Shown piece by piece: positions 43,552 to 61,239 of a stretch of 64,000 bases of DNA (the first letter of the stretch is position 1; the number at the start of each line of letters is the position of its first letter). A program made the translations under genes and the position numbers. Where the stretch lies: the IMG/VR virus record IMGVR_UViG_3300045988_085326, positions 64,001-128,000 of that record; one strand, given 5' to 3'. The stretch comes from a virus. The notes under the pieces were generated by a model, which searched no databases, was not told the origin of the DNA, and was given only the letters and a program-made list of their open reading frames with translations.

Positions 43552-43584
43552 TATTATAAGATAAAAGTAAAGTAGGTGAATAAT

Positions 43585-44136: not shown

Positions 44137-44309
44137 AATGGAAGCATTAGGACAAGGTTTGGAGCTCTTGGAGACGCAATAGGTTTTATTGGAGGATGGA
44201 TAGGTTTTGTTTGTATAGCAGGAATTGCGGCAAGCACTTTTCTTGTATATACAGGTAAAGCTACTCTTGAACAATTAAAAGATTTATTTAATAAGGATAG
44301 GAGATATCG

Positions 44310-44756: not shown

Positions 44757-45088
44757 ACAAAATTGTAATAATATGGTCTGGGGATGAAGAATTATTATCT
44801 AAAACTATGGAAAAATTAATAGTAGATAGCCAATGTTTTCTTTTTACTGTGATATGCGGCGGCACCGATGAAAGTAACCTTAAGTCTAGTTCAGGATATC
44901 GTTGGGCAATCCGCAATGGTGCTCCAGTGGAATTTATGATAGAAGCGGATGTGGAGAAACTATTAAATAAAATTGCCCAAACCGCGGACTATATTGTTTG
45001 TTATAACAATGGAAATCAATTAGTAAAAAGATTGATAATGAAGTTTAAGTCGCAAGGAAAGCATGGAACAGTGATTATAGGAGAATAA
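44753..45088 (+). CDS. hypothetical Rossmann-like protein, 111 aa (possibly second SLOG-like domain)
   Basis: Start overlaps upstream stop (ATGA). beta-alpha pattern IVIIWSGD...VICGG...DYIVCY. Confidence 0.4.
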   Translation: MNKIVIIWSGDEELLSKTMEKLIVDSQCFLFTVICGGTDESNLKSSSGYRWAIRNGAPVEFMIEADVEKLLNKIAQTADYIVCYNNGNQLVKRLIMKFKSQGKHGTVIIGE

Positions 45089-45089
45089 A

Positions 45090-45518
45090 ATGGTATATAC
45101 AAGTTATTTTGGAAAAATGAAGTCATTCCCGCCTAATATGATACCTATAGCGATATGTGGCGGAATCCCCGATTGGTATAAAAAGGGAATGATAGATAAG
45201 AGATGGCTATGGTATAAAAAGTTAGCTCCTAAATGGGAGTTTTTTCAAGTTTGGAAGCAAACGCATGATAATGATTATTATATTCGCAACTATAATACAT
45301 TAGTGTTAGATAAATTAGATGTGAATCGCATTGCCGCAGACATTCAACTTATGCTTCCTCTTGAAATAAGAGAGCAAATGACAAGTAGTATATGGTGTAG
45401 TGATAATATTCACGTTGCGCTTTTATGTTATGAAAAGCCAAATGATTTTTGTCATAGACATTTAGTTTCTAAATGGTTTAATGAACATGGATATAAATGT
45501 GAGGAATGGAAAGTATGA
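45090..45518 (+). CDS. DUF488-family protein (YeaO-like)
   Basis: MVYTSYFGK N-terminus and conserved C-terminal ALLCYEKPNDFCHRHLV (DUF488 LLC.E....CHR signature). Confidence 0.55.
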   Translation: MVYTSYFGKMKSFPPNMIPIAICGGIPDWYKKGMIDKRWLWYKKLAPKWEFFQVWKQTHDNDYYIRNYNTLVLDKLDVNRIAADIQLMLPLEIREQMTSSIWCSDNIHVALLCYEKPNDFCHRHLVSKWFNEHGYKCEEWKV

Positions 45519-45697
45519 AAAATAAAGTATTAGTAATAAGTGCAGAAAATTATTGTCGAGAAATAGAAGACAAAATTAATGAAGAATTAGAAAAAGGTTG
45601 GTTAATTGAACTTTTTTATGAAGCACGTGGAGATAATGGGAATAAAATAATTGTTACCTTATATAAGGAAGAAGAGAATGCGGAAGGCGACGTATAA
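45506..45697 (+). CDS. small hypothetical protein, 63 aa
   Basis: Translationally coupled ORF. Confidence 0.4.
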   Translation: MESMKNKVLVISAENYCREIEDKINEELEKGWLIELFYEARGDNGNKIIVTLYKEEENAEGDV

Positions 45698-45857
45698 AGG
45701 TGGAAACTTTCCTATTGTTCCTGGAACGGTATGTGATGTAAGATTAATTTGGGATAATGATTGCGAATATGTTTATGTATATGTATGGACATTAAGCGGA
45801 AGTATGAAGTGTGCTTATGATGGAAGAACAGAAATGGAGAAGGAGTGGCAGTTATGA
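45651..45857 (+). CDS. small hypothetical protein, 68 aa
   Basis: Translationally coupled ORF. Confidence 0.4.
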   Translation: MLPYIRKKRMRKATYKGGNFPIVPGTVCDVRLIWDNDCEYVYVYVWTLSGSMKCAYDGRTEMEKEWQL

Positions 45858-46063
45858 TAGCTAAATTTATTGGGCAAGATGGAAGTCTGGGATTTAGAAC
45901 TGGAAGAAAATATATTATAAATATAGAAAGGGATAATAATAATAATTGGATTTGGGTAAAAGAATTATTTGGAAGAAGTTGTCCATATCAAAGTATGAAT
46001 ACTTTAAAAAAGAATTGGGATATTCCTTCAAATAAATTTCATCCTGCAAGACAGTATAGATAG
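45845..46063 (+). CDS. small hypothetical protein, 72 aa
   Basis: Last gene of the coupled operon. Terminator ATACCCCGGGGTAT+T-run at ~46156..46176. Confidence 0.4.
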   Translation: MAVMIAKFIGQDGSLGFRTGRKYIINIERDNNNNWIWVKELFGRSCPYQSMNTLKKNWDIPSNKFHPARQYR

Positions 46064-46311
46064 CTATTCGTTTTTAGATTTTCAAAATGCATTTGGAGAT
46101 TTTTTGGACGAGGCCAAATCATTTTCACAAAGTCAAAAAATTTTTTTCCCGAAATATACCCCGGGGTATTTTTTCTAGTACGTCAGATTCTTGTAGACTT
46201 CTTTCAAGAGCAAGATAAATAGACAGCCCCACATAATAAAGAACTGCGGGAAGTCGTTTAATGAGCATAAGGTTTAGCTATCTTATGCTAACACGCTTAC
46301 TCATAAGAATA

Positions 46312-46378
46312 AACACATTAATGTAATTTAATAATAGATAATTTATTTTATTGTAATTGTAAATTACATTAATGTGTT
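46312..46378. repeat. perfect 19-bp inverted repeat AACACATTAATGTAATTTA...TAAATTACATTAATGTGTT around a 29-nt AT loop; each arm contains the sub-palindrome ACATTAATGT
   Basis: Seen directly. Located in the 490-bp non-coding gap before the first promoter cassette, immediately upstream of the GC hairpin at 46383. Confidence 0.7.
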
Positions 46379-46553
46379 CGCTGGCTCGCGTGCGGTCATG
46401 GCGAGCCGCGATTCTTGTCAAGTAGTAATGTTGTACAATTTTTTTGCCAAATGTTTGTGCATTATTATAATAGATTCTATCCCGAAATGACTTGACACGT
46501 AGAGTGTTATGTGATATAGCATAATTACAGAAAGGGAAAGAGAGGTAACAAGC

Positions 46554-46700
46554 ATGATTACAAAGAAATTTGATTACAAAGGACAGATGATTAACTATTT
46601 CAATAAAGTAAGAAAGAATCCAAATATTAGTGCATGTTATTGTAGTTTCTCTTGTGTTCATGGGTGCTATGTAGTAGAGTACTGTTACAAAGAAAGATAA
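46554..46700 (+). CDS. small Cys-rich protein, 48 aa (not in ORF track)
   Basis: Promoter plus canonical leader GGGAAAGAGAGGTAACAAGCATG. CYCSFSCVHGCYVVEYC. Confidence 0.45.
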   Translation: MITKKFDYKGQMINYFNKVRKNPNISACYCSFSCVHGCYVVEYCYKER

Positions 46701-46804
46701 TCTTTCAACAAAAAAGTCTAATAAAACGCTTGACACACAAAGATATTCATGCTATAATAAATACATAAAGAACAAAGAAAACAACACAAAGAGAGGTTGA
46801 TAAT

Positions 46805-47125
46805 ATGATTAAAGAGTATCAAGTAACACTTATTTGTGAGACAGGACAATACAGACCAGTAAGCGCCATTATTAAGGCAGATGATAAGACTGCGGAAGTC
46901 ATCGGTATTGATGCTTTCAAGCAACAAATCCGCACACAAGGTATTACAAAAATATGCCAAAAAAGGTATTGGGGTAGTTCAGATTTAAAGAGGTATCATT
47001 ATACAAAAGTAAAAATGAGAGAGTATGACAAAGAAAAAATCGAAAAAGAAAATGCAGAACGCTATGAGAAAATAAAGCGGGAACGCGGTTGGATTACCAC
47101 AGACATAGACAAGGGAGAACAATAG
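46805..47125 (+). CDS. hypothetical early protein, 106 aa
   Basis: Promoter TTGACA-17-TATAAT at ~46730 and RBS AAGAGAGG. Confidence 0.55.
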   Translation: MIKEYQVTLICETGQYRPVSAIIKADDKTAEVIGIDAFKQQIRTQGITKICQKRYWGSSDLKRYHYTKVKMREYDKEKIEKENAERYEKIKRERGWITTDIDKGEQ

Positions 47126-47226
47126 TTCTCTCTTTTTTGTCCCTTGTTGATAACGTTAAAAAATTATGGTATAATAATAATGTAAAGAAAAATAAAGACA
47201 ATAGAATAAAGAAAGGAGCAGAACCA

Positions 47227-47328
47227 ATGAAGCTTAGTTTAGACGAACTAACTGCTTTAAAGCTTGTACTTGAGTTCGTATCTGTTAAAGACTTGCTTAT
47301 ATCAGCAATAAATAACTTTGCAGAGTAA
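47227..47328 (+). CDS. small hypothetical protein, 33 aa
   Basis: Promoter TTGATA-17-TATAAT at ~47147 and RBS AAAGGAGCAG. The N-terminal 46 codons of the track ORF lack an RBS. Confidence 0.3.
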   Translation: MKLSLDELTALKLVLEFVSVKDLLISAINNFAE

Positions 47329-47549
47329 GAAGATATTCACTCTAAAGATAATGCAGACTTGTGCTTTAAAGCTATTACTTCATTTCTGAAATAATTTATT
47401 TCGGAGACCGTACACGTTCAAGGTGCGGTCGGTTCACTCCATAGTGGTATACAGCCAGATATTTTTTGCCAAAAAGTCTGGCTTTTCGCTTGACAAAGTT
47501 ATCCTGAAATGCTATAATAAATGTATCAAAGGAAAGAGAGGTAAATACA

Positions 47550-47669
47550 ATGTCATTGATGTATACAAACAAGGAAGCGTTTGAGAGAGTAAAAAGATTC
47601 TTAGAAGTTAATCAGTACTCATTTGAGTTTTCCATTTCAAATGGACAATTTTATATAAAAATTACTTAA
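47550..47669 (+). CDS. small hypothetical protein, 39 aa (not in ORF track)
   Basis: Promoter at ~47489 and leader AAAGGAAAGAGAGGTAAATACAATG. Confidence 0.4.
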   Translation: MSLMYTNKEAFERVKRFLEVNQYSFEFSISNGQFYIKIT

Positions 47670-47675
47670 TAAGGG

Positions 47676-47704
47676 TTGACAAACTACAAAGAACGTGTTA
47701 TACT
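47676..47704 (+). promoter_or_regulatory. early sigma-A-type promoter
   Basis: TTGACA-17-TATACT. The ORF-track TTG start is actually the -35 element. Confidence 0.65.
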
Positions 47705-47735
47705 TAATGTATCAAATGAAAGAGAGGTAAGTAAA

Positions 47736-47906
47736 ATGAATGAGAAGTTTAAAGGTATGATAGATGACATAATAAGAAAGTTTGGTTTTGAGGATATTCA
47801 CACTATTATCTTCTGCGGAATGTGTGAGAGAGCAGATGTTCCTCTCAATTCAATTTATGAAACCTATGATGAATACATGAGTTTAGATATAATGCTCGAT
47901 GAATAA
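47736..47906 (+). CDS. small hypothetical protein, 56 aa
   Basis: ATG after AGAGAGG RBS. Rho-independent terminator at 47893..47919. Confidence 0.5.
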   Translation: MNEKFKGMIDDIIRKFGFEDIHTIIFCGMCERADVPLNSIYETYDEYMSLDIMLDE

Positions 47907-48055
47907 TCGAGCATTTTTTACGTCGCGGCGCGTACGACCCTTGCGCGCCGAATTTGCGCATTATTATATTGTACCACATTTTTCGCTCGCTGTCAATAGA
48001 CAAATTGCACAAAGATTGAATCCCGAAATTGTGCAATATTTTTTTAAAAAAAGTA

Positions 48056-48084
48056 TTGACGTACTCGTACTCACGTGCTATAAT
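48056..48084 (+). promoter_or_regulatory. early sigma-A-type promoter with upstream A-tract
   Basis: AAAAAAAGTATTGACG-17-TATAAT. Confidence 0.65.
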
Positions 48085-48118
48085 GTATTTACAAGGTAAG
48101 GAAAGAGAGGAAAACAAA

Positions 48119-48574
48119 ATGACAAAGGAAACAATGATTAGAAATTATAGAAAATTCAGTGCGGCTGATAGTTATATATTAGGCTTTATTTATAACCATG
48201 AGGTTTATGCGGTAGAGGTTGCGGAGATAATGCCTAGATACATGAGAGTAGAACACGAAAGCAGTAAAAAAGGCGGTTGTGCAAAATTACAGTTGAGATT
48301 GCCGAAAAATTATCAAGAACAGTTAATTAGAAAAGGTGCGGTTGTTATCGGTTCAGAAAATATCTTAAATGGAGAATATAATAAAGGCGTTGAGTTTGAA
48401 AGAGTTATTTCTGAAATGAATGGAATAGCATTTAGAGGTAAAGACAACGAGCCATTTTATAAAGCAGGCGACTTAAATATAAATGGTAAAGAAATACAAA
48501 TAAAATTTAATGGTGCTCAAATTGTAGTAGAAAGAACCTTAAAAAAATTACAAAAAATGCAAAAAAATGCTTGA
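48119..48574 (+). CDS. hypothetical early protein, 151 aa
   Basis: ATG following leader AAGGAAAGAGAGGAAAACAAAATG. Confidence 0.55.
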   Translation: MTKETMIRNYRKFSAADSYILGFIYNHEVYAVEVAEIMPRYMRVEHESSKKGGCAKLQLRLPKNYQEQLIRKGAVVIGSENILNGEYNKGVEFERVISEMNGIAFRGKDNEPFYKAGDLNINGKEIQIKFNGAQIVVERTLKKLQKMQKNA

Positions 48575-48634
48575 CAAACTGATTACCGTATGGTATTATA
48601 ATTATAGAAAGAGAGAGAAAGAGAGGTATTCAAA

Positions 48635-49114
48635 ATGAGAAAAACATTAGTATTCGATATGGACGGAACAATCGCAGACCTTTATGGAGTGAATGGTTGG
48701 TTAGAAAATCTTAGAGAAGAAAACGCAAGACCTTATATAGAGGCAAAACCGCTGTATGATATGGATGTTCTTGCAAGTATCTTAGGACTTTTAAGATTGA
48801 ATGGTTGGACAATAGCAATCACAAGCTGGCTTTCAAAAGAAAGCACAAAAGCCTATGATAAAAAAGTAAGAGAAGCCAAAAAAGAATGGCTTGCAAAATA
48901 TAACTTCCCTTATGATGAAATCCATCTTGTAAAGTATGGCACAACAAAAGCCAACTGCACTAGAAAAAATGGTGGTTTCCAGATTTTAGTAGATGATAAT
49001 GAGGAAGTTCGCAAGAGTTGGCACTTAGGCGATACAATCAACGCAAACGAAAACATCATTGAAAAACTGGTTGACTTACTGGTTGCGGAGTTTATTCATA
49101 CTCCGCAACTTTAA
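48635..49114 (+). CDS. HAD-superfamily 5'(3')-deoxyribonucleotidase-like protein
   Basis: HAD motif I LVFDMDGTIAD at the N-terminus and ILVDDN (motif IV). Size and architecture of the NT5C family. Confidence 0.55.
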   Translation: MRKTLVFDMDGTIADLYGVNGWLENLREENARPYIEAKPLYDMDVLASILGLLRLNGWTIAITSWLSKESTKAYDKKVREAKKEWLAKYNFPYDEIHLVKYGTTKANCTRKNGGFQILVDDNEEVRKSWHLGDTINANENIIEKLVDLLVAEFIHTPQL

Positions 49115-49133
49115 AAATTTTTCAAAAAAAGTA

Positions 49134-49162
49134 TTGACAACGTGCAAATAATTTGTTATACT
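49134..49162 (+). promoter_or_regulatory. early sigma-A-type promoter
   Basis: AAAAAAAGTATTGACA-17-TATACT. Confidence 0.6.
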
Positions 49163-49193
49163 TAATGTATCAAATGAAAGAGAGGAAAACAAT

Positions 49194-49346
49194 ATGACGA
49201 TTGAAAGAAGCAATGATACAAATTATCCTTACACAATAAAAGGCGGTTGGGGAGATAAAGTTTATTGTTCTCTTGATAGTTTAAAAGAATTAAAAAGAGA
49301 AATCAATAAAATTTTAAAAGAGGAAAAAGCTAAAAATCAGAAATGA
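49194..49346 (+). CDS. small hypothetical protein, 50 aa (not in ORF track)
   Basis: Leader AAAGAGAGGAAAACAATATG. Terminator 49326..49363. Confidence 0.45.
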   Translation: MTIERSNDTNYPYTIKGGWGDKVYCSLDSLKELKREINKILKEEKAKNQK

Positions 49347-49806
49347 TTTTTAGCTTTTTTATTGTGTGCGGGCCGCGCACGTTTCTCGCGCGGCCGAAAT
49401 TTCATTATACCATAGTCCTTGAGGTTTTGTCAAGCGTTTTCCTCATAAATACTACACAAAAAGAACTCCCGAAATTTGGTCATTATTACCTATTGATTTT
49501 TAATAAAAATTTTGCTATAATATAGAAGGTAAGGGAAAGAGAAAGCAACAAAAAAGAAATTAAAAAAAGTTGAAAAATCTCTTGACAAACCGCGACACAA
49601 GTGCTATAATAAAGATACAAGATAGGAAAGGGTGTCGGACTTCTACCAAAGTACAGGTAGTGAATTTCTTGAAAAAGAGGTTGATTGCTTAGGAAAAGAA
49701 GTTCAGCTCTTTGAAAACAAAATCCTAAAAAATCTTGAAAAAGTGCTTGACAAGTCACTGTAAACATGGTATAATAAACTTATCAAATGAAAGAGAGGTA
49801 GTAAGT

Positions 49807-49959
49807 ATGAGTAAGAAAGAGTTCCTTAAGAAGTGGAGAAATGATAGAGATTTCCGCTATGACATGAGAAGAAAGGGCATTAAGGTTATTCAGGATAATG
49901 TAATTTTCTTCAACCCTGATGGCTCTGTTCGGGCGATGGCTGGTGCTTACATTCAGTAA
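49807..49959 (+). CDS. small basic protein, 50 aa
   Basis: Promoter at ~49751 and leader AGAGAGGTAGTAAGTATG. Confidence 0.45.
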   Translation: MSKKEFLKKWRNDRDFRYDMRRKGIKVIQDNVIFFNPDGSVRAMAGAYIQ

Positions 49960-50064
49960 GCACCGCAAGAAAAAAAAATAAAAAAACTATTGACAACTAA
50001 ATAAAGAAATGTTATAATAAAGATGTAAAGAAAACAAATAAAAAAAAGAAAGAGGTAATGAATT

Positions 50065-50433
50065 ATGGAAAAGAAAATGACTAAGAAAGAGTGGTTCGCA
50101 GTATTAGCAAGTGTGGTTGAGGCTTCTGAAATGGAGAATAAGACCGAGGCTCTGGCTTTCATCAATCACGAGGTTGAACTGTTAGAGAAGAAGTCCGCAA
50201 AGAGCGGTCAGACCAAGACACAGAAAGAGAATGTCGGCATTATGGAGGAAATCAAGTCCGCACTTGGCGAGGTTGGTAAGGCTGTTACCATTACAGAGTT
50301 GCAGGCGGCTTCCGCTGAAATGGCTGAATATAGCAATCAGAAATTATCCGCTTTGCTGAAAAAGTTGGTTGAGAGTGGCGAGGTTGTAAAGACCACCGAG
50401 AAAAAGAAATCTTACTTCTCCCTTGCGGAGTAG
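50065..50433 (+). CDS. paralog family A member 1: 122-aa protein with C-terminal winged-helix-like segment
   Basis: Promoter at ~49985. 70% identity with 53053..53439, ~50% with 55397..55762. Conserved AKSGQTKTQKEN and SNQKLSAL...TTEKKKSYF. Confidence 0.6.
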   Translation: MEKKMTKKEWFAVLASVVEASEMENKTEALAFINHEVELLEKKSAKSGQTKTQKENVGIMEEIKSALGEVGKAVTITELQAASAEMAEYSNQKLSALLKKLVESGEVVKTTEKKKSYFSLAE

Positions 50434-50634
50434 TAAGCAACCGAAAGGGCAAGACAGAAATGTCTTGTCCTTTTTTGATTTGGCGGCGCGCGGACAATCG
50501 CCCCGCGCCGATTTGCGTGTCAAGTAGTATATTGCATAAAAATTTTGTGCGATTTTTGTGCATTTTGCCTATTGTATTTATCCCGAAATGCTGTTATAAT
50601 GTATTTACAAGGTAAGGAAAGAGAGGTAAACAAA

Positions 50635-51111
50635 ATGACAAACTTATTATTTTTATTTATCATAATGAACGCACTTAATGTAGTAATGCAGACTATTAAA
50701 AGTCTTTGCACTGTAAACTCTGGTAAAACAGTTGCGGCTATTGTAAACGCGGTAGCTTATGGTTTTTATACAGTAATTGTAGTTTACATGAGTTGTGACC
50801 TTCCGCTTTGGGAAAAATCTTTGATTATCGGTCTTTGTAATCTTGTTGGTGTTTACATTGTAAAACTTTTTGAGGAAAAGAACCGCAAAGATAAATTGTG
50901 GAAAGTAGAATTGACAGTTAGAGCAGAAAGAACAGATGTTCTTGCTCGACAGTTAGAGGAACTTGTAATTCCGCATAACTACATTACAAATGTTGGCAAA
51001 TGGACTGTATTTAATATCTATTGTAATACACAAAAGGAAAGTGCTTTTGTTAAGGATTTAGCAATTAAGCACAAAGCAAAATTCTTTGTATCTGAAAGCA
51101 AGCGGTTATAA
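50635..51111 (+). CDS. membrane protein, 158 aa, two N-terminal TM helices plus soluble C-terminal domain
   Basis: ATG after canonical leader. Hydrophobic LLFLFIIMNALNVV and AYGFYTVIVVYM segments. Confidence 0.5.
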   Translation: MTNLLFLFIIMNALNVVMQTIKSLCTVNSGKTVAAIVNAVAYGFYTVIVVYMSCDLPLWEKSLIIGLCNLVGVYIVKLFEEKNRKDKLWKVELTVRAERTDVLARQLEELVIPHNYITNVGKWTVFNIYCNTQKESAFVKDLAIKHKAKFFVSESKRL

Positions 51112-51209
51112 TTACCGCTTGCACGGATAAAAAATTTTAAAAAAGTATTGACAAATAAAAAAGAAAATGATATAATAATTATAGAAAGAAAGAAAGAGAG
51201 GAAAACAAT

Positions 51210-51407
51210 ATGAGAAAATTAGTTTATGTAGTAGGCGGTCAGGAAATTACATCTTACGAAAAGGCTAGAGAAATTCAGCCGAGCGGTCAGCTTCAGATAA
51301 AACTTGATGAAATTCGAGAAGAAGCTAAGGTTAATCCCGAAACGCTGGCAAAGAGACAGGCTTACTTTGCAAGGCGTAGAGCTGAAAAGGCGGTGGCTTC
51401 CAATTAA
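51210..51407 (+). CDS. small hypothetical protein, 65 aa
   Basis: Promoter at ~51150 and RBS AGAGAGG. Confidence 0.5.
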   Translation: MRKLVYVVGGQEITSYEKAREIQPSGQLQIKLDEIREEAKVNPETLAKRQAYFARRRAEKAVASN

Positions 51408-51487
51408 GGAAGCTACCAAATAGGGCTTGACAAATAATCAAAAAAATGGTATTATAATCATAGAAAAAGAAAAGAGAGGTGCTTACT

Positions 51488-51688
51488 ATGAGAATTAATG
51501 TTGAAATGAAATGTCCTTTTTGTGGCTCTACCCATGCAGTTGAAGTAAACCTTGCACAGTTTGAGGCTTGAGAGAATGGCGAACTCATTCAAAACGCAAT
51601 GCCAGACTTATCAGCAACTGAGCGAGAGCAGTTAATTTCTCACATTTGTCCTAAATGTCAAGCAGATTTTTTTGAAGGAGAAGAGTAA
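51488..51688 (+). CDS. Cys4 zinc-ribbon protein split by an in-frame TGA (51569..51571)
   Basis: MRINVEMKCPFCGSTHAVEVNLAQFEA-TGA-ENGELIQNAMPDLSATEREQLISHICPKCQADFFEGEE. The two CxxC pairs lie on either side of the stop. Own promoter at ~51425 and terminator at ~51677..51703. Confidence 0.4.
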
Positions 51689-51706
51689 TCTTCTCCTTTT
51701 TTTGGT

Positions 51707-51733
51707 CGCGCCGCGCACGTTCCTCGCGCGGCG
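51707..51733. repeat. one copy of the recurring extreme-GC hairpin CGCCGCGCACGTTCCTCGCGCGGCG. Similar hairpins at 46383..46410, 47924..47950, 49370..49395, 50483..50510, 53937..53964, 54994..55020 and ~56497..56520
   Basis: 7-8 bp all-GC stems in a ~30% GC genome. Each follows the ordinary terminator of the upstream gene and precedes a TGTCAAG and TCCCGAAAT module and the next promoter. Confidence 0.7.
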
Positions 51734-51828
51734 ATTTTTTCATTATACCATACCGCCGCAAATTTGTCAAGCGAAATGTGAGAAAAAATTGCACAAATCC
51801 GCATCCCGAAATTTGTGCAATTTGTATG

Positions 51829-51857
51829 TTGACTTTTGTATGTAGCGATGCTATAAT
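51829..51857 (+). promoter_or_regulatory. early sigma-A-type promoter preceded by palindromic ATTGCACAAAT...ATTTGTGCAAT site
   Basis: TTGACT-17-TATAAT. The inverted repeat 51788..51822 is centred on TCCCGAAAT. Confidence 0.6.
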
Positions 51858-51891
51858 GTATTTACAAGGTAAGGAAAGCGAGGTAAACAAA

Positions 51892-52068
51892 ATGGCACTT
51901 GACAAGGCAATTATGAGCGGTAAAGAACACCGCAAAATATATAGAGGTAGTAAGAGTATTGATAGGACTTGTCGCAATCATGGTTCTTGTGATTGGTGTC
52001 GTGAAAATCGACAATATAAAAATTTAAAAAAATTGCAAAAAACTCTTGACATGATGAAAGAGGTCTGA
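51892..52068 (+). CDS. small Cys-containing protein, 58 aa
   Basis: Canonical leader AAGGAAAGCGAGGTAAACAAAATG. CRNHGSCDWC. Confidence 0.5.
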   Translation: MALDKAIMSGKEHRKIYRGSKSIDRTCRNHGSCDWCRENRQYKNLKKLQKTLDMMKEV

Positions 52069-52108
52069 TATAATAGTATTACAAGGTAAGGAAAGAGAGG
52101 ATAAAAAA

Positions 52109-52822
52109 ATGCAGAAAGAATATTTTATGGTACTTGATACAGAAACCGCAAACAGTGTAGAACAGCCACTTCCTTATGATATTGGCTATGCTATATGCGA
52201 TAGACAAGGAAATGTTGAAATTGCAAGAAGTTTTGTAGTCGCTGAAATGTTCCTTGACAATAAAGACCTTATGCAGTCCGCATATTTCGCTGAAAAGATT
52301 CCGCAGTATTGGGAAGATATCAAAAGCGGAAAAAGAGAGTTAAAAACTTTCTACAATATCCGCAAACAGTTGAAAGCAGATATGCAAGCCTATGGAGTAA
52401 CCAAAGTTGGGGCTTACAATATGGGCTTTGACAAGAGAGCTTTAAACAATGATACACGCTATATCACAAAGTCTTTCTTGCGGTGGTTCTTCCCTTATGG
52501 CACAGAGTTCTTTTGTATCTGGAATATGGCTTGTAGTGTGATTTTAAACAGACCGAGTTATATCAAATTTGCCCTTGAAAATGGTTTTGTTTCCGAGGCT
52601 GGAAATATTCAGACTTCCGCGGAATGTGCATATAGATATATTACAAAAGACACTGATTTTGTGGAAAGTCATACAGGTTTGGAAGATGTGCTAATTGAAG
52701 TCGCAATTATGGCATACTGTTATAGACAACATAAGCCTTTTGAAAACTCTATCAATTCCGCTTGTTGGCGAAAAGTACAGAGAGCGAGAAAAGAAATGGA
52801 ATTAAAACAAGTGTTCGCTTAG
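52109..52822 (+). CDS. DEDDh-family 3'-5' exonuclease (DnaQ/RNase T-like)
   Basis: Exo I FMVLDTETAN, Exo II YNMGFD, Exo III SHTGLEDV. Confidence 0.65.
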   Translation: MQKEYFMVLDTETANSVEQPLPYDIGYAICDRQGNVEIARSFVVAEMFLDNKDLMQSAYFAEKIPQYWEDIKSGKRELKTFYNIRKQLKADMQAYGVTKVGAYNMGFDKRALNNDTRYITKSFLRWFFPYGTEFFCIWNMACSVILNRPSYIKFALENGFVSEAGNIQTSAECAYRYITKDTDFVESHTGLEDVLIEVAIMAYCYRQHKPFENSINSACWRKVQRARKEMELKQVFA

Positions 52823-53052
52823 GCGAACGCTTGTTCGAGACGTGCACAAAATTTTCAAAAAGTCAAATAAAAAATTTTTAAAAAAACTATTGACAATAAA
52901 AAATAAAAGTGTTATAATAGTATTATCGAAAGGAAAGAGGTTTGAAAAGAGCAAAGAAAAAAAATAAAAAAAACTCTTGACAAACTAAAAACCTTATGAT
53001 ATAATAAATACATAAAGAACAACAAATAAAAATTTTAAGAAAGAAAGAGGTA

Positions 53053-53439
53053 ATGAGCATGGAAAAGAAAATGACTAAGAAAGAGTATTTTGCAGTATTG
53101 GCTGAGGTAGTAGCAAATTCCGACATGGAAAACAAAGAGGGCGCACTTGCCTTTATCGCTCACGAGGTTGAACTTCTTGAAAAGAAGTCCGCAAAGAGCG
53201 GTCAGACTAAAACTCAAAAGGAAAATGCTGAAATCCTTGTAAAGATTAAGACTGAACTTGCAGAGGTTGGCAAGGCTGTTACTATCACTGAACTTCAGGC
53301 GGCTTCTGCTGAAATGGCACAGTACAGTAATCAGAAACTTTCCGCACTCTTAAAGAAACTTGTTGAGAGTGGCGAGGTTGTAAAAACTACTGAAAAGAAA
53401 AAGTCCTACTTTGCAGTAGCTGAAACCGAGGGCGAGTAA
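53053..53439 (+). CDS. paralog family A member 2, 128 aa
   Basis: Tandem promoters at ~52890 and ~52975. Close paralog of 50065..50433. Confidence 0.6.
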   Translation: MSMEKKMTKKEYFAVLAEVVANSDMENKEGALAFIAHEVELLEKKSAKSGQTKTQKENAEILVKIKTELAEVGKAVTITELQAASAEMAQYSNQKLSALLKKLVESGEVVKTTEKKKSYFAVAETEGE

Positions 53440-53560
53440 TCGCCCTCCCCAAAGGGAAAGAAAATAAAAAAAATACTTGACATTCGCCACATTGTCTGAT
53501 ATAATAATCATAGAAAGAGAGGTAAACAACATGGATAAAGAAAAACTTATCAATTAGATA

Positions 53561-53896
53561 ATGAAAGAGTGTGCAGAGGATGGCGAACCTGTCACAAGAG
53601 AAGAAACCGAAGAAATGGCGGAAATGGAATTGAAAGCCAAAAAAGATTGTCGGCGGTATGAGAGCGACAAACGAAAAGTCAAAAAGCCCTCTACAAGAGA
53701 AAAGAAAATTGATACCGAAAAAGCGCGGTTAATGGAACTGTTTAATTACTGTTTGCTTGAACCTAACCGCATTGATGATGAACTTCCTTTCAAAATTGAA
53801 TTTGTGTCAGTAGTTAATAATCAAAAAGAGATTACTTTCAGCATTGGCGAAAATGATTACTCACTTACACTGACAAAACACAGAAAGAAAAAATGA
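53561..53896 (+). CDS. paralog family B member 1, 111 aa, preceded in-frame by an 8-codon mini-ORF (53531..53557, MDKEKLIN-TAG)
   Basis: Promoter at ~53477. The canonical leader ATG is at 53531. A TAG stop comes 3 nt before ATG 53561 in the same frame. C-terminus resembles 55962..56381. Confidence 0.5.
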   Translation: MKECAEDGEPVTREETEEMAEMELKAKKDCRRYESDKRKVKKPSTREKKIDTEKARLMELFNYCLLEPNRIDDELPFKIEFVSVVNNQKEITFSIGENDYSLTLTKHRKKK

Positions 53897-54089
53897 TTTT
53901 AAGCAGGTTTCCTTGTGGGAGCCTGCTTTTTGATTTGGCGGCTCGCATGCGGTTGCCGCGAGCCGAATTTGCACACGTTAGTAATGTTGTACAATTTTTT
54001 ATTCAGATTTTTGTGCATTTTGCCTATTGTATTTATCCCGAAATGCTGTTATAATGTATTTACAAGGTAAGGAAAGAGAGGTAGTTAAA

Positions 54090-54389
54090 ATGAAAGCGAC
54101 TGGTATAGTAAGAAGAGTAGATGATTTAGGAAGAATAGTTATTCCAAGAGATATTCGAAGAATAATGCAAATCAAAGAAAGTGAACCAATGAAGTTTTTT
54201 GTAGATAAAGACGCTATTGTAATAAAAAAGATTGAGACTAATAGTTATACTTTAAGACAGACAGAAGATTGGGTAGAATTATTAGATGAAAAAGGGAAAG
54301 TATTGGCAGAAGGTCATAGTTTAAGACCAGAAGAAATCTTAACAGCACTGAATATTGATTTTGAAGTTGAAGAAGTTGAAGAAATGTAA
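54090..54389 (+). CDS. AbrB/MazE/SpoVT-family swapped-hairpin DNA-binding protein
   Basis: N-terminal MKATGIVRRVDDLGRIVIPRDIRR matches the AbrB-N signature (GIVR.VD.LGR.VIP.E.R). Confidence 0.75.
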   Translation: MKATGIVRRVDDLGRIVIPRDIRRIMQIKESEPMKFFVDKDAIVIKKIETNSYTLRQTEDWVELLDEKGKVLAEGHSLRPEEILTALNIDFEVEEVEEM

Positions 54390-54460
54390 ATTTTTTATTG
54401 ACAATAAACAAAAAGTATGATATAATAATTATAGAAACAAGGAAAGAGAGGAAAAAAAAG

Positions 54461-54712
54461 ATGTTTGTAAGAATCAATTATTCTAATGGCTATTGTGGTT
54501 GTGATGAATCAGAAGTTTTAGAAGTTGAAAATATTGAAGAAGCAGAAGTTTATGCGGCAGAGGGTATTCATGACTATGCTGAACCTTATACTTATGTAGC
54601 TACAGGTTGGGATGAAGGTTTTGAATCTGAGGAAGAAGAAGAAACCTATTATGAAAATTGTACTTTCGATATTGAAGAAATTACAGAAGAGGAATATCAA
54701 GAGGAAAAGTAA
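54461..54712 (+). CDS. highly acidic small protein, 83 aa
   Basis: Promoter at ~54398. About 35% Asp+Glu (ESEEEEETYYENCTFDIEEITEEEYQEEK). Confidence 0.5.
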   Translation: MFVRINYSNGYCGCDESEVLEVENIEEAEVYAAEGIHDYAEPYTYVATGWDEGFESEEEEETYYENCTFDIEEITEEEYQEEK

Positions 54713-54779
54713 TTTTTCTCTTGACAAACTCAAAAGAATCTGTTAGAATAAATATATCAAGAGAAAAAGAGGTAAAAGA

Positions 54780-54965
54780 ATGGAAGAACTGAAAGCCTTA
54801 GATATGATTTGGATAGTTATTAACCCTGATGGAACTTACGCGGGAACACCTTGCCTTACTTGGGAAGAAGCGAGAGAGCTTGTTGCACAGAAAGAAGGCA
54901 GGAGAGTTTTCAATCTTGACCCCAATGAAGAAGATGTAACAGAAAATGAAAATGGTTTGATTTAA
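54780..54965 (+). CDS. small hypothetical protein, 61 aa
   Basis: Promoter at ~54720. Terminator at 54966..54990. Confidence 0.45.
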   Translation: MEELKALDMIWIVINPDGTYAGTPCLTWEEARELVAQKEGRRVFNLDPNEEDVTENENGLI

Positions 54966-55396
54966 GAGGGCGCAAAGCCCTCTTTTTATTTGTCGCGCCG
55001 CGCACGTCCCTTGCGCGGCGATTTTGCCTTAACCTTTCATTATACCAAATTTTTTGCTAGATGTCAAGGGGTAAAAATAACTAAATCTAATTCCCGAAAT
55101 TTGTGCAATATTTCCTATTGATTTTTAATAAAAATTTTGCTATAATAAATACATAAAGAAAAGGAAATAAGTAGTGACTGTCAAGGCACTAAAAAATTCC
55201 AAAAAAAATAAAAAAAAAGTCTTGACAAATAAAAATGCTTATGTTATAATAAATACATAAGAAAGAGATAAAACAGAAAACAAGCACTGAAAAAACTCTT
55301 AAAAAAAAATAAAAAAAATGCTTGACAAGAAAAACTGAATATGGTATAATAAAGATGTAAAGAAAAACAAACAAAGAAAGGTAAGAGGTGTTGAGT

Positions 55397-55762
55397 ATGG
55401 CAGAAAAGAGAATTACAAAGAAAGAGTATTTTGCAATGGTAGCAGGTGTTGTTGAGCAGGTTAATCCTACAAACAAGGAAGAGTTGTTGGCTTTTATCAA
55501 CCATGAGGTTGAGTTGCTGGAAAAGAAGTCTGCTAAGTCTGGACAGACTAAGACACAGAAAGAGAATGTCGGCATTATGGAAACTATTTCTGAGGTACTT
55601 GCTGATATGGGTAAGCCTGTAACTATCACTGAACTGATGAAAGATGAGCGGTTGTCCGCATACTCTAATCAGAAGTTGTCCGCACTGGTTAGACAGATGC
55701 CTAATGTGATTAAAACTACAGAGAAAAAGAAGTCTTACTTCTCTCTTGTAGACACAGAGTAG
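55397..55762 (+). CDS. paralog family A member 3, ~121 aa
   Basis: Three stacked promoters at ~55099, ~55222, ~55319. Conserved LAFINHEVELLEKKSAKSGQTKTQKENVGIME and SNQKLSAL...TTEKKKSYFSL. Confidence 0.6.
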   Translation: MAEKRITKKEYFAMVAGVVEQVNPTNKEELLAFINHEVELLEKKSAKSGQTKTQKENVGIMETISEVLADMGKPVTITELMKDERLSAYSNQKLSALVRQMPNVIKTTEKKKSYFSLVDTE

Positions 55763-55961
55763 GCGAACATCTGTTCGGGGTGGAGAGGCTCAAATCCTCT
55801 CCCTACTCCTCAAAGACATTTTGAAAATCCTCCTTTCTATGTGGTGTGGGGCTTTTGCCCCATTCCACAAACCTTTTAAAAGATTTTCAAAAAAACTATT
55901 GACATTATAAAAATTTTTTGTTATAATTATTTTAGAAAGTTAAGAAAGAGAGGTTTTCAGT

Positions 55962-56381
55962 ATGAAATACAATTTGAATGGTAAAAATATCGATATTCCA
56001 GACGCTGATATTGAGTGGTCAATGAAAAGCCTTGAATTGACAAAAGAAGAAGCAATTCAGATGTGGCTTGAAGATGAAGGCTATCTCAGAAATGAAGAAC
56101 AAGAGGAACTGGAACGCAAGGCAAAGGAAAACCGCATTACAGCAACTATCCATCAGGCAAGCGCAAAAGACCCTCATAAAAAGACACAAAAAGAGCGGGT
56201 TCGCAAGGAAAATCCGACAAAAGAAATGGTAATTCGCGAAATTGCGGCACTTTTACCTAAATTTGCGGAAGATATTGAGATTTTGAATGTCGGAAAGCTG
56301 ATTTCTTTCAGAATTGGAGAGGAAAAGTACGAAATTGACTTAAAACAGAAAAGAAAACCGAAAGAAACCGCTAAAAAGTAG
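55962..56381 (+). CDS. paralog family B member 2, 139 aa
   Basis: Promoter at ~55896. C-terminus ISFRIGEEKYEIDLKQKRKPK parallels ITFSIGENDYSLTLTKHRKKK of 53561..53896. Confidence 0.5.
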   Translation: MKYNLNGKNIDIPDADIEWSMKSLELTKEEAIQMWLEDEGYLRNEEQEELERKAKENRITATIHQASAKDPHKKTQKERVRKENPTKEMVIREIAALLPKFAEDIEILNVGKLISFRIGEEKYEIDLKQKRKPKETAKK

Positions 56382-56931
56382 CGGTTTCCACATAATTTTC
56401 AGATAATTTGGCGGTTTTGGGCAGTTTTCACAAGAAAACTGCTCTTTTTTGTGCATTTTTTCTACTTGACAACAATATAATTATGTGCTATAATTGTCGG
56501 CGCGTCGCCGATGGTGATGCGCCGAATCCGCCTCCCCGCACGCCATATGCAATTTTTTCGTAGATGTTTGAAATCTATCATCATTTCCCCAGTTTCCCGA
56601 AAATGCCCCAGTCCAATGTATCATATGGCCGCGCCCGCCGCATGTTTGAAAATTCAAAAAATTTATAGTATAATATTTATATAAAATGAAGGAAAATATA
56701 TAAATTTGGCAGTCCATCTAAAATCTTAATACATTCATTTACTTTTATCACTGCCGCCAACATTTTTACATAAAGCCCCTGCCGCAATAAAATTGCTTAA
56801 ATACAGTTTACTCAATCATTTAAACGGAGTTGTCGGAGACACTTGAAAATTCAAAAAATTTATAGTATAATATTTATATAAAATGAAGGAAAGAACAAAA
56901 GAAATAAATCAACGATAGGAGATTATAATTT

Positions 56932-57399
56932 ATGGAAAAGAATGTAGAAATGCTGTCTTTAGCTGATGCACTGCGTGATGGAGCCTCTCTTGAGGATATT
57001 CGTAAGTCCTTTGAAGCTGCACTACAGGATGCACAGAGTGAGGTTGCCGCAGAAAAGAAGAAGGCACAAGAGGCTAAAGCTTGTAAGAATTGCGGCGATT
57101 GTGATGAGTTAGACCTCGATGTATGCCGCGAAGAGATGATTTATGCGGTTTTGGATTATCTTACAGCCCTTGGTCTTATTCCGGAAGATATGGAGATTGA
57201 GGATGATGACATTGACCATCTAATTGATATGATTAAGGAAGTTGAGGAAGAGTATAAGGCTAAGATTGGCTTCGTGGAGATGCTTTCAGTTATGGCTAAG
57301 ATGGAAGCGGATAAGAAAGAAAAGGTCAGCGAAAAGAAAGTTGCTGAAAAGCCTTCTGCTGATGATGTAATTGCTCAGTTTCTGAAGGGACTCCGTTAA
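56932..57399 (+). CDS. acidic hypothetical protein, 155 aa
   Basis: Preceded by duplicated 49-bp promoter copies at 56646 and 56842. RBS GATAGGAGA. Terminator at ~57387..57415. Confidence 0.5.
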   Translation: MEKNVEMLSLADALRDGASLEDIRKSFEAALQDAQSEVAAEKKKAQEAKACKNCGDCDELDLDVCREEMIYAVLDYLTALGLIPEDMEIEDDDIDHLIDMIKEVEEEYKAKIGFVEMLSVMAKMEADKKEKVSEKKVAEKPSADDVIAQFLKGLR

Positions 57400-57500
57400 G
57401 GGGTCTCTTTTTTCTTGATATATGCACCTTGAAAACGGAATACGGTAGACGATACAGGTCTGGTCCTGGTCGCATATCTACTATTACAAATTTTTCTTCC

Positions 57501-57652
57501 TTCATTAAAATTATTTACAAATCTTCACTTCTTCACTTCTTCATTAAAATTATTTACAAATTTTTCTTCCTTCATTAAAATTATTTACAAATTTTTCTTT
57601 CTTCATTAAAATTATTTACAAATCTTCACTCCTTCATTAAAATTATCCAAAT
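57501..57652. repeat. iteron-like array: five direct copies of TTCATTAAAATTATTTACAAAT at ~31-bp spacing (first spacing 39 bp)
   Basis: Copies at 57501, 57540, 57571, 57602 and 57633 (last copy degenerate). Spacers are short T/C-rich (TTTTCTTCC / CTTCACTCC). Lies between convergent genes. Confidence 0.8.
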
Positions 57653-57735
57653 TTCTTCATTTCCTCATTTCCGCACAAGAGCAAAGGAAAATATAAACTC
57701 CTTCGCCCTCACACATAAATTCTACTCTTCACCAT

Positions 57736-58635: not shown

Positions 58636-59589
58636 CTAAACTGTTTTGTTAGGTATATTATAAAATGCTTCTTGGTTTAAGTCTACATTAAGTCCAAGAC
58701 AACGTTGATAACCAGCATAAGCTCTTGATGACTTAAATATCGCAGATTCTTTTAATATCTTATTACTATCTTTAATTTGATACTCACTTAATCCAGTAAC
58801 CGCGGAAAGCTCCTTTATGGTGAAAGGTTGTCTAGTCGAAAGTAACTCAATACCTAGCCAAGTCTTTAATAAAGGAATCCAACTTCTCTTATGATACTTA
58901 TCCGCAAGTATCTTACAATTTCTAACCATTCCTATACCAATCTTCATATCTTCTTCTACTTTTCTATAAAGACCAGCAATAAAATAATTAGGATTAGTTT
59001 TATCAATATTATAACTAATAAATTCTCTTTCTGCTAAACTTTGTAATGCATTTTTTAATTCAATAATATTATTTTTTGATACATTACACCCTGCATATTT
59101 CAAAAAATCTTCATAGCTCCCTCTAAAAACTAACATTGGAGTGGTTATAATAGCAAGAAAACACATAAAATCCCAATTCATTAACTTTAATGTATCATTA
59201 CTTAATATCATTTCTTCTCTTACTTCATCATACATAGTAATAGCTCTTTGGTCATCTTCAATTTCTTCTATATAATTCGCGGTTTTGCCTCTACCTTCTT
59301 TAATAATCCTAATACCATGTTTTTTTAAAATAGATTTTTGAGTACGCGGAAAAGCATTTTTCATACTGCTTTCTGATACTTCATATTTTTCACATACTTC
59401 TTGTAGCGTCATAAAATTCCAACAAACTTTTCGTTTGTATTCTCCTTTCAATAAGTTTACAAGATATAGTAAAAATTCAAACAAAAAACCTGTTGGAATT
59501 TGTCCAAAACTTAATAATACGGTTTCGTATATTTTTAACTTTGCAAGAGAAAAATTAGACTTTAACAAAACCTCCAAATTTTTTAACAC
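58636..59589 (-). CDS. two-HTH DNA-binding protein, possible replication initiator or regulator, 317 aa; true start may be internal (MTLQEV...)
   Basis: HTH-like segments TLQEVCEKYEVSESSMKNAF and FTIKELSAVTGLSEYQIKDSNKIL. Located near the iteron array and the repeat-rich region 58440..58635. Confidence 0.4.
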   Translation of the reverse strand: MLKNLEVLLKSNFSLAKLKIYETVLLSFGQIPTGFLFEFLLYLVNLLKGEYKRKVCWNFMTLQEVCEKYEVSESSMKNAFPRTQKSILKKHGIRIIKEGRGKTANYIEEIEDDQRAITMYDEVREEMILSNDTLKLMNWDFMCFLAIITTPMLVFRGSYEDFLKYAGCNVSKNNIIELKNALQSLAEREFISYNIDKTNPNYFIAGLYRKVEEDMKIGIGMVRNCKILADKYHKRSWIPLLKTWLGIELLSTRQPFTIKELSAVTGLSEYQIKDSNKILKESAIFKSSRAYAGYQRCLGLNVDLNQEAFYNIPNKTV

Positions 59590-60124: not shown

Positions 60125-60847
60125 TTGAAAGCAATTCAATCTGGCAATACTTTTCGTATTTATGACAATAGCATGAAAACTTATGACCAGCTTCCGCCTA
60201 ACGCTTATCTTATCAATTTTAGCAAAGAAACGGGGTTTTACCTCACTCTTTATTCTGAAATTGATATTAAGGAAAAAGTGTATGGCGTTCATGAAGCTAA
60301 AGTTAATAAAGTTTTAAATGCATTTAACCAGTTTAAGCGGAATTTAGGTATTATTTTGAGCGGAGATAAGGGTATTGGTAAATCTCTGTTCTCTAAAATG
60401 CTAGCTCAACGCGGAATTGAGCAAGGATTGCCGCTTATCATCGCAAACTGCTATATCCCTGGTATTGGTGAGTATATTAATAGTATCGAGCAGGAAGTTA
60501 TTGTACTCTTCGATGAGTTCGATAAGACTTTCCAGAAATGCGGCGACCGTGACCCGCAGGCTGAAATGCTCACACTGTTCGATGGTATTGCACAAGGTAA
60601 GAAGCTCTTTGTTGTTACTTGTAATGATTTAAGAGGACTTAATAATTTCCTTGTGAATAGACCTGGTCGTTTTCATTATCATCTTAGATTTGAATATCCG
60701 AACGCCGCAGCCATCACTGAATATCTTACTGATGCTCTTGATGAAGCATATCATAAGGAGATTCCCGCAGTAATTGCATTTGCAGGTAAGGTTGACCTTA
60801 ATTATGACTGTTGCGAGCAATCGCATTTGAACTTAACTGCGGTTTAA
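60125..60847 (+). CDS. AAA+ ATPase, TTG start
   Basis: Walker A GDKGIGKS, Walker B VIVLFDEFD, second region of homology LVNRPGRFHYHL. RBS AGAGAGG 8 nt upstream of TTG. Confidence 0.65.
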   Translation: MKAIQSGNTFRIYDNSMKTYDQLPPNAYLINFSKETGFYLTLYSEIDIKEKVYGVHEAKVNKVLNAFNQFKRNLGIILSGDKGIGKSLFSKMLAQRGIEQGLPLIIANCYIPGIGEYINSIEQEVIVLFDEFDKTFQKCGDRDPQAEMLTLFDGIAQGKKLFVVTCNDLRGLNNFLVNRPGRFHYHLRFEYPNAAAITEYLTDALDEAYHKEIPAVIAFAGKVDLNYDCCEQSHLNLTAV

Positions 60848-61239
60848 GTTTTAGAGAAGCTATCGCTGACCTGAATATTATCAATCTTGATGCTGACTAC
60901 TATACTCTTGTTCTGGTTCTGAGCAATGGCGAAGAGCTGAAGATTAATGAGAGATTGGATACGTTCAGTTCCGAGGAGACTTACTCAGAGTTTTATGACC
61001 CTGAGATGCATAAGGACTTATATTACGTTCATTATACTCCGTCCAACAATCATTACGATTCTCACAGCAACCATTGCTGTATTAATGGAGAAGATTTACG
61101 ACTTGAGCTTCAATCTCATATTAATCCTAAGAGTGAGGATGAAGATTATAAAAAGTTATATCAGAAATATAAAGATGTTAAGGCGGTTCGACTTGAGTTA
61201 AGACGCCAGAAGGCTAGAGGTATTCATTACCTTGTATAG
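60811..61239 (+). CDS. ORF in the -1 frame overlapping the AAA+ gene end; possible C-terminal (lid) continuation by frameshift, or an independent gene starting at an internal ATG
   Basis: Open from 60808. Begins ...GLSFREAIADL resembling an AAA+ sensor-2/lid segment. No canonical start or RBS at 60811. Confidence 0.3.
   Translation: MRAIAFELNCGLSFREAIADLNIINLDADYYTLVLVLSNGEELKINERLDTFSSEETYSEFYDPEMHKDLYYVHYTPSNNHYDSHSNHCCINGEDLRLELQSHINPKSEDEDYKKLYQKYKDVKAVRLELRRQKARGIHYLV

Follow-up and report, generated by a model that had tools for sequence, protein, structure and literature searches.

What small genes kept in several copies in the early region of a large phage do for that phage, and whether they are imports or part of its core gene set, are questions raised by a 64,000-nucleotide stretch of viral DNA (positions 64,001 to 128,000 of IMG/VR record IMGVR_UViG_3300045988_085326; this whole stretch is termed the window, and positions are counted from its first nucleotide). 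Between positions 50,065 and 56,381 the window carries three related genes that specify a winged-helix protein, designated family A (A1, A2 and A3), and two genes of a second family, designated B (B1 and B2), which follow A2 and A3, respectively. An earlier note, made from the sequence without database searches, had regarded these genes as rapidly diversifying and separately acquired, in the manner of anti-defence or host-takeover factors. Comparison with related loci established that A and B are core early genes of a phage clade, without annotation, and that they are not fast-evolving imports. The families are new in so far as they are unannotated, while A belongs to a familiar structural kind.

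In a widespread clade of large phages from human and animal guts, none of them cultured, few early genes are as well conserved as A and B. Homologs number in the thousands: family A falls into 2952 clusters at 90% identity, with 2660 representatives at 50%, and all of them lack a name, a Pfam assignment and a structure. No concept is overturned by these findings; their value lies in a well-delimited experimental target, as A and B form a defined candidate pair for how these phages seize their hosts in the first minutes of infection.

The A and B gene families

All five genes lie on the plus strand. That the three A open reading frames (ORFs) are genuine paralogs whose C-terminal part forms a winged helix, as previously proposed, was confirmed by the ORFs themselves, by alignment, by a family hidden Markov model (HMM) which the three copies match at E 1e-47 to 1e-54, and by an AlphaFold2 model. 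A1 (50065..50433) encodes 122 amino acids, and its assignment is based on the ORF, alignment, family HMM (E 1e-54) and the AlphaFold2 model with its fold matches. A2 encodes 126 amino acids and is followed by B1; the A2 start had been set two codons too early at 53053, whereas a GAGG motif 8 nt upstream of 53059 provides suitable ribosome-binding site spacing, database homologs are 126 amino acids long, and the tblastn alignment with the ortholog of related locus L001 spans 53059-53436, placing A2 at 53059..53439. A3 (55397..55762, 121 amino acids), supported by ORF, alignment, family HMM and tblastn, is the most divergent copy and is followed by B2. The A1 and A2 proteins share 84% identity, A1 and A3 67%, and A2 and A3 about 62%, so that the 50-70% range given in the earlier note holds for the two pairs that involve A3 and not for A1/A2. 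The division into a variable N-terminal and a conserved C-terminal half holds only approximately, variable positions being found at residues 13-29 and 57-70; however, the block HEVELLEKKSAKSGQTKTQKEN (residues 35-56) is identical in the aligned A1, A2 and A3, and A3 varies additionally at residues 80-89 and 98-106.

The A protein (~13.5 kDa, near-neutral with an isoelectric point (pI) of 6-7.9) has a pair of helices in its N-terminal part, the conserved linker TKTQKEN and a canonical winged helix, and displays the succession of H1, strand, H2 and H3 with a beta-hairpin wing that characterizes the winged helix-turn-helix (HTH) fold at superfamily level. Its recognition helix, SNQK[LI]SAL, is near-invariant across phages of 27-49% GC, and the wing carries the motif KKxxYF. 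Searches of Pfam, NCBIfam and PDB sequences gave no relative of A above generic winged-helix noise, and phrog_19455, the sole library family to match all three A copies near full length (E 5e-7 to 3e-5), is itself without annotation.

Family-profile tests of A were run on 66 family members. ArsR/SmtB, MarR, PadR, Fur and Z-alpha domains show 11-25% sequence identity to A with no family profile at threshold; A is without a ligand-sensing or metal-binding part, and its N-terminal helices and TKTQKEN linker have no counterpart in generic winged-helix regulators or Z-alpha domains. Membership of the ArsR/SmtB or MarR families was not obtained, as NCBIfam HTH_metalloreg matched 8 of the 66 (best E 5.9e-5) and Pfam MarR_2 two of them at 0.0096, with the window copies unmatched. 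A Rok-type nucleoid protein was not supported, WH_Rok matching four members below threshold (best E 8.9e-4) and the pI of A being 6-7.9. Mimicry of the RNA polymerase delta subunit (RpoE) was not supported either, with an hhalign probability of 1% between the A profile and a B. subtilis RpoE sequence; HARE-HTH matched two of the 66 at 0.024, which does not place A in the delta-subunit family, and the window copies carry no acidic tail. Some A homologs do have Glu/Asp-rich C-terminal tails of 20-100 residues (P0247, P0250, P0133, P0165 and P0168 were examined), and in P0168 two winged-helix halves are fused in tandem.

Family B is likewise real and, as first described, its two members in the window are distantly similar. 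BLASTP aligns B1 with B2 at E 6e-6 over the C-terminal 37 residues, and an iterative profile search of the ORFs of related loci joined both in one family of 86 members from 53 loci. This family is made up of a short, B1-like subtype (22 copies) and a long, B2-like subtype (64 copies), which differ in their N-terminal part and are both conserved clade-wide. The B proteins are ~14-16 kDa in size with a basic tail. B2 (55962..56381), a long-subtype member of 139 amino acids, was modelled as an N-terminal beta-hairpin and three-helix bundle joined by a basic linker to a C-terminal alpha+beta module and the basic tail. B1 is of the short subtype (121 amino acids in relatives) and was placed at 53531..53896 on the basis of sequence, relatives, tblastn and the family profile. 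The gene had been correctly recognized but given a start at 53561, which is the next in-frame ATG after a TAG at codon 9 (53555-53557); this codon is CAG (Gln) in L001, L002, L004 and L005, and the tblastn alignment shows the one stop. The distant relative phAss-1 recodes TAG as Gln (PMC10607447). Such recoding was rejected for B1: the standard code leaves the late ORFs uninterrupted, no tRNA gene occurs in the window, and TAG serves as the stop codon of A1 and A3. The B1 stop is probably a simple nonsense variant.

An A gene is found within 700 bp upstream, on the same strand, for 65 of the 86 B genes, and a locus retrieved by means of B contained the same pairs of A with short B and A with long B. 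The repetition of an A-then-B arrangement in the window therefore stands, but the two cassettes had been taken for duplicates of each other. Because B1 and B2 represent two old, clade-conserved subtypes, comparison of the sequences identifies the cassettes as old paralogous modules rather than the product of a recent duplication. Two further candidate links between the families were rejected: the similar KTQKE(N) motifs do not reflect A-B homology (hhalign probability 2%), and co-evolution of A and B subtypes is unsupported, since the A copies preceding short B genes form no cluster of their own.

Transcription signals and the early region

The large structural genes of the window form a long minus-strand block (311-43485), after which comes a plus-strand block of short genes (43576-57399) that includes A and B. 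The latter block contains 15 perfect (12/12) TTGACA-17-TGnTATAAT promoters within 8.3 kb, plus hairpin terminators, and this density of consensus promoters marks it as an early region transcribed by the host polymerase, in line with the earlier reading.

Each A copy constitutes its own transcription unit with one to three near-consensus sigma-A promoters, all of those in the window being on the plus strand. A1 is preceded by a 12/12 TTGACA-17-TATAAT promoter with TG and an A-rich tract upstream (49990..50018), A2 by two tandem 12/12 promoters (52890..53005, comprising 52890-52918 and 52977-53005) and A3 by three, about 100 nt apart (55118..55350), of which 55118-55146 scores 10/12 while 55222-55250 and 55322-55350 score 12/12. 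The B genes have 12/12 promoters of their own, at 53477..53505 within the 91-nt gap between A2 and B1, and at 55899..55927 for B2. Terminator-like hairpins on the same strand follow A1 (50443..50474), B1 (53901..53928) and B2 (56419..56444).

This promoter load is a property of the clade. Across 119 A copies the 400 nt upstream contain a mean of 1.73 near-consensus promoters as compared to a background of 0.28, with at least two such promoters for 63% of the copies and at least three for 24%, and the load upstream of A exceeds that of B and of the neighbouring exonuclease-like and HAD-like genes. Phased A-tracts upstream of the -35 and an extended -10 are common to A promoters, and in the distant locus L014 tandem promoter-containing repeats of 95-100 nt adjoin both minus-strand A genes. 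Many A leaders in relatives (L015, L022, L039, L044, L050 and others) have a short inverted repeat at the predicted transcript start, e.g. GTAAATAAG...CTTATTTAC, which may form a 5'-terminal stem-loop and possibly acts as an mRNA stabiliser. The A leaders in the window are without such a repeat.

Distribution and evolution across the clade

A terminase-like protein of 578 amino acids encoded by the source phage shows 44-47% identity to its counterparts in Enterococcus phage H1/EF1, Geobacillus E3, Alicyclobacillus KKP_3916 and the gut phage phAss-1, and 68% identity to that of an unannotated human-faecal contig. Near-identical contigs of 138-149 kb (~145 kb) are present in human gut metagenomes. 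Among deposited phages the region had no match at the DNA level (megablast), and tblastn returned a single unannotated record only; a plasmid search found the family A gene on none, and an Rfam scan matched nothing useful. In GTDB the family A gene is confined to metagenome bins, which carry the labels Erysipelotrichaceae (98% identity), Anaeroplasmatales, Christensenellaceae and Lachnospiraceae. From the terminase relatives, the gut contigs, the GTDB bins and the lack of plasmid carriage, the source is therefore an uncultured, apparently non-temperate (lytic), large phage of gut Bacillota.

Related loci were taken from an IMG/VR pattern scan (51 loci, on contigs up to about 180 kb) and from relatives in ENA; the clade is seen on contigs of roughly 80-180 kb and consists of gut and rumen Bacillota phages. 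Together they yielded 138 A copies in 56 loci, usually 2-5 per 20 kb, and 86 B copies in 53 loci. When all ORFs were clustered, A, B, the exonuclease-like and the HAD-like genes emerged as the four most widely shared families. The usual array order is A-A-B, and in a low-GC subclade two arrays, A-A-B and then B-A-A, converge on a homolog of the HTH gene at 58636-59412, while the genes adjoining A vary (B-long, B-short, c14, c41, c32, c9, exonuclease-like and HAD-like). A survey of copy number in relatives had been suggested, with the proviso that a conserved phage protein of fixed copy number would speak against the earlier view: A is such a conserved core protein, but its copy number varies, from two to five per 20 kb.

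The A copies in the window differ from each other at dN (non-synonymous substitutions per site) values of 0.12-0.31, their synonymous sites are saturated, and dN/dS, the ratio of non-synonymous to synonymous change, is at most 0.12. Identical codons at shared amino acids number 47, 41 and 37 for the three pairs, as compared to 40 +/- 4, 36 +/- 4 and 33 +/- 4 expected from independent draws. Because synonymous sites are saturated, codon identity is at chance level and dN/dS does not exceed 0.12, the A copies are old paralogs under strong purifying selection. The description of these genes as rapidly diversifying is thus not upheld, given the randomised synonymous sites and a near-invariant recognition helix. 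Selection for synonymous divergence as a means of avoiding recombination was rejected, since identical codons are neither fewer nor more than expected. In a neighbour-joining tree of 119 A copies (short sequences, and so indicative only), most copies fall beside others of their own genome or lineage, a pattern which, as far as such a tree can tell, points to genes that were repeatedly duplicated and lost while more than one copy was always kept.

Composition and codon usage

The genes of families A and B and the gene at 56932-57399 are, as the earlier note stated, richer in GC than their neighbours, and comparison with late and early genes showed this to be the case especially for GC at third codon positions (GC3). 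The GC content of A1, A2 and A3 is 0.45, 0.42 and 0.40, that of the B genes 0.37-0.38 and that of 56932-57399 0.43, as compared to 31.6% (0.316) for the whole window. GC3 amounts to 0.56, 0.41 and 0.45 for the A genes, 0.35-0.36 for the B genes and 0.39 for 56932-57399, while the mean is 0.169 +/- 0.036 for late genes (n=29) and 0.263 +/- 0.064 for the remaining early genes (n=13). The shift is codon-specific: AAG accounts for 64% of Lys codons versus 23% in late genes, GAG for 60% of Glu codons versus 17%, and CAG for 93% of Gln codons versus 26%, whereas four-fold sites are 43-54% T and at most 12% G, only C being raised, in A1 and A2. Of the 18 Lys codons in the 56932-57399 gene, 15 are AAG. 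In relatives of up to 30% GC the A genes are at background GC3; in those of more than about 31% GC they lie above background, reaching 0.9 in 49%-GC phages.

A uniform foreign GC content is disfavoured because the excess is confined to particular codons. A codon pattern of this type is a possible product of translational selection in a host of moderate GC content, and the excess would fit selection on highly expressed early genes better than a foreign origin. The separate acquisition previously suggested is not borne out, as A and B are among the four most conserved genes of the region, GC3 is raised in the close relatives as well and the shift is codon-specific. Taken together, high GC3, several copies and tandem promoters suggest gene-dosage selection rather than horizontal import.

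Possible function of A and B

The reading we favour, which we hold as tentative and not yet as probable, is that A is an abundant immediate-early, nucleic-acid-directed protein for transcription or DNA organisation, with B as its partner. Host RNA polymerase would make A in very large amounts in the first minutes of infection, and A, probably as a dimer, would bind nucleic acid via its winged helix and modulate transcription or the organisation of DNA, whether that of the phage or of its host. In a concrete version, feedback would bring about shut-off or re-targeting at the early consensus promoters, of which there are dozens. The multiple genes, the multiple promoters and the AAG/GAG/CAG-rich, T-ending codon usage would all serve dosage, and B would be a co-factor or second subunit. 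Support for this proposal comes from the promoter load, the core status and pairing of the genes, purifying selection, the codon-specific bias and the precedent of T7 Gp5.7.

T7 Gp5.7, likewise small and winged-helix-like, is reported to repress promoters of the host polymerase that lie on the phage genome (PMC5569994). A and Gp5.7 have in common that they are small phage proteins with a winged-helix-type fold, associated with a genome region rich in strong host-type promoters. The two are unrelated in sequence, and Gp5.7 is a 7-kDa, single-copy protein that is not immediate-early. A, in contrast, is 13.5 kDa, multi-copy and has an extra helical N-terminal part, and a repressor activity of A would be by analogy only. 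An anti-CRISPR-associated (Aca)-type autoregulator is an HTH protein that represses the promoter of an operon shared with a variable anti-defence gene upstream of its own. A lies upstream of its neighbour and not downstream; the neighbours vary, but B has its own promoter. A and B do not match a toxin-antitoxin pair, having no toxin-antitoxin match in Pfam, PADLOC or PHROG and being served by separate promoters.

The host-takeover module and early region of SPO1, a large Bacillota phage, consists of short early genes, most with their own strong sigma-A promoter and terminator. The window is similar in presenting a block of short early genes with individual sigma-A promoters and terminators. 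To our knowledge, SPO1 lacks both homologs of these genes and any paralog family kept in multiple copies. Unlike SPO1, the phage of the window is a distant relative of large siphovirus-type phages (terminase identity 44-47%). The early-to-middle switch of SPO1 has been described (PMC13401047).

Several points weigh against a nucleic-acid-directed role for A. Its near-neutral pI of 6-7.9 is unlike that of typical basic nucleoid proteins, winged helices may bind proteins or RNA too, and A has no sequence relative in Pfam, NCBIfam or PDB beyond generic winged-helix noise. The early timing is read from promoter sequence. In addition, a binding site for A was sought among the enriched motifs of the window and its relatives, and none was found. 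One palindrome of the region, TTGCACAAA-N17-25-TTTGTGCAA next to -35 elements, proved to be conserved; it is far more frequent than expected, both in the window and in a large number of distant relatives: the 9-mer TTGCACAAA occurs 4-17 times per 20 kb, as compared to about 0.15 expected, in L007, L018, L023-L025, L044, L046, L049-L051, L056 and L060, usually as an inverted pair just upstream of the -35 element. The 9-mer is essentially absent from the low-GC subclade (L009-L015, L021-L022 and L026-L041), in which the A recognition helix is the same; the palindrome does not covary with A and was not assigned to it, and looks like an operator for some regulator. A second enriched k-mer family (TGCGGAAA / TTGCCGCA) was dropped, being scattered and partly located in coding sequence, including B genes.

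That A and/or B are anti-defence or host-takeover effectors which bind and neutralise host proteins, be these part of a defence system, of the nucleoid or of RNA polymerase, with paralogs covering variant targets, appears unlikely, yet this explanation survives best among the alternatives. It would suit an early region driven by host polymerase, genes present in two to five copies with lineage-specific duplications, the absence of annotation of A and B anywhere and the long acidic C-terminal tails of some homologs, and the clustering of same-genome paralogs is what would be expected of genes tracking one host. However, strong purifying selection with a conserved recognition-helix surface, variable residues that are few and lie outside the winged-helix face, the presence of the genes in every relative rather than in a patchy pattern, and the lack of any match to defence-related profiles (PADLOC) argue against it.

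We consider it quite improbable that A is a replication or origin accessory which binds at or near the phage origin or loads replication proteins with the assistance of B. The location invites the idea, in that the arrays end beside the HTH protein (58636-59412), an AAA+ ATPase (60173-61239) and a 31-nt repeat (57484-57669), with two A-B arrays converging on the homolog of the HTH gene in many relatives, and residues 29-115 of A weakly match the C-terminal ends of the phage primase/helicase families phrog_3022 and phrog_5311 (E about 1e-3). These PHROG matches are marginal, though, the tandem repeat is not conserved in relatives, and several highly expressed copies would be unusual for an initiator accessory.

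In a bolder reading, offered with little expectation that it holds, A and B may constitute an undescribed two-protein early system specific to the clade. Amplified genes and promoters would allow A to be mass-produced, and A would then either cover or tag DNA or trap the sigma-A polymerase of the host at consensus early promoters, driving the early-to-middle switch or shielding phage DNA, while the duplication and the mirrored A-A-B / B-A-A arrays would represent dosage amplification and not diversification. Finally, a recent import of GC-richer genes (morons) with no core role is very improbable: GC and GC3 well above the window background would fit, but no genes of the region are better conserved in the clade than A and B, GC3 is raised in relatives too, the shift is limited to certain codons with four-fold sites at 43-54% T and at most 12% G, and the paralogs are old.

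Neighbouring genes and intergenic elements

A1 is followed, as the earlier note recorded, by a membrane protein gene (cluster c14; 50635..51111, plus strand) with three hydrophobic segments, conserved in 15 loci. The exonuclease-like gene (phrog_20187; 52109..52822, plus strand) accompanies A and B in each of the 56 loci, and the HAD-like hydrolase gene (48635..49114, plus strand; weak Pfam match) is found with them in 46. An acidic protein of 155 amino acids and pI 4.4 (cluster c29; 56932..57399, plus strand) comes after the last A-B pair in seven loci. Between the A-B cassettes lies an AbrB/MazE-type gene (SpoVT-AbrB fold, 99 amino acids; 54090-54389), which matches PF04014 (E 4e-9) and phrog_4681 (E 9e-20), is unrelated to A and B and has no identified adjoining toxin partner.

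Beyond the end of the A-B arrays are the HTH protein gene (58636-59412) and the AAA+ ATPase gene (phrog_2376; 60125-61239), the latter split into two overlapping ORFs by a frameshift near 60811 and present as a single ORF of 371 amino acids in L001. This frameshift and the B1 stop are the only gene disruptions relative to L001 in ~20 kb at 97% identity. The 31-nt tandem repeat at 57484-57669 (about five units of TTACAAATTTTTCTTCCTTCATTAAAATTAT) occupies the gap between converging plus- and minus-strand transcription, ~1 kb from the HTH gene, and could be an origin or packaging site. A conserved tandem-repeat origin between converging arrays was rejected, as the repeats are not conserved in the distant relatives L014, L022 and L041.

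The 550-nt gap between B2 and the gene at 56932 contains an exact 50-nt promoter-like duplicate (56646-56695 and 56843-56892, 197 nt apart), with no convincing ORF between the two copies. The motif CGAAC-N4-GTTCG is found at 52824-52837 and 55764-55777, directly after the stop codons of the exonuclease-like gene and A3; it would match the consensus of the Bacillota LexA (Cheo) box, plain hairpins being equally possible.

A composite intergenic element occurs seven times in the window, starting near 47890, 49335, 50450, 51675, 53905, 54960 and 56465, and found no match in Rfam. Each copy combines the terminator of the upstream gene, a GC-rich 8-9 bp hairpin (CGCCGCGC-loop-GCGCGGCG), which is odd for a 32%-GC genome, and a plus-strand promoter. 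Most of the elements also carry the palindrome AATAG..TTGCACAAA-N17-25-TTTGTGCAA..CTATTGA overlapping the -35 of that promoter, and four share the leader GTATTTACAAGGTAAGGAAAGAGAGG, the genes concerned starting near 48119, 50635, 51892 and 54090. Perfect 12/12 minus-strand promoters are located inside two of the elements (55067-55039 and 51770-51742), with weaker ones in those at 47890 and 49335. These face back through the GC-rich hairpin and the upstream terminator, and each could give rise to an antisense small RNA of ~60-80 nt, which would make up a multi-copy family.

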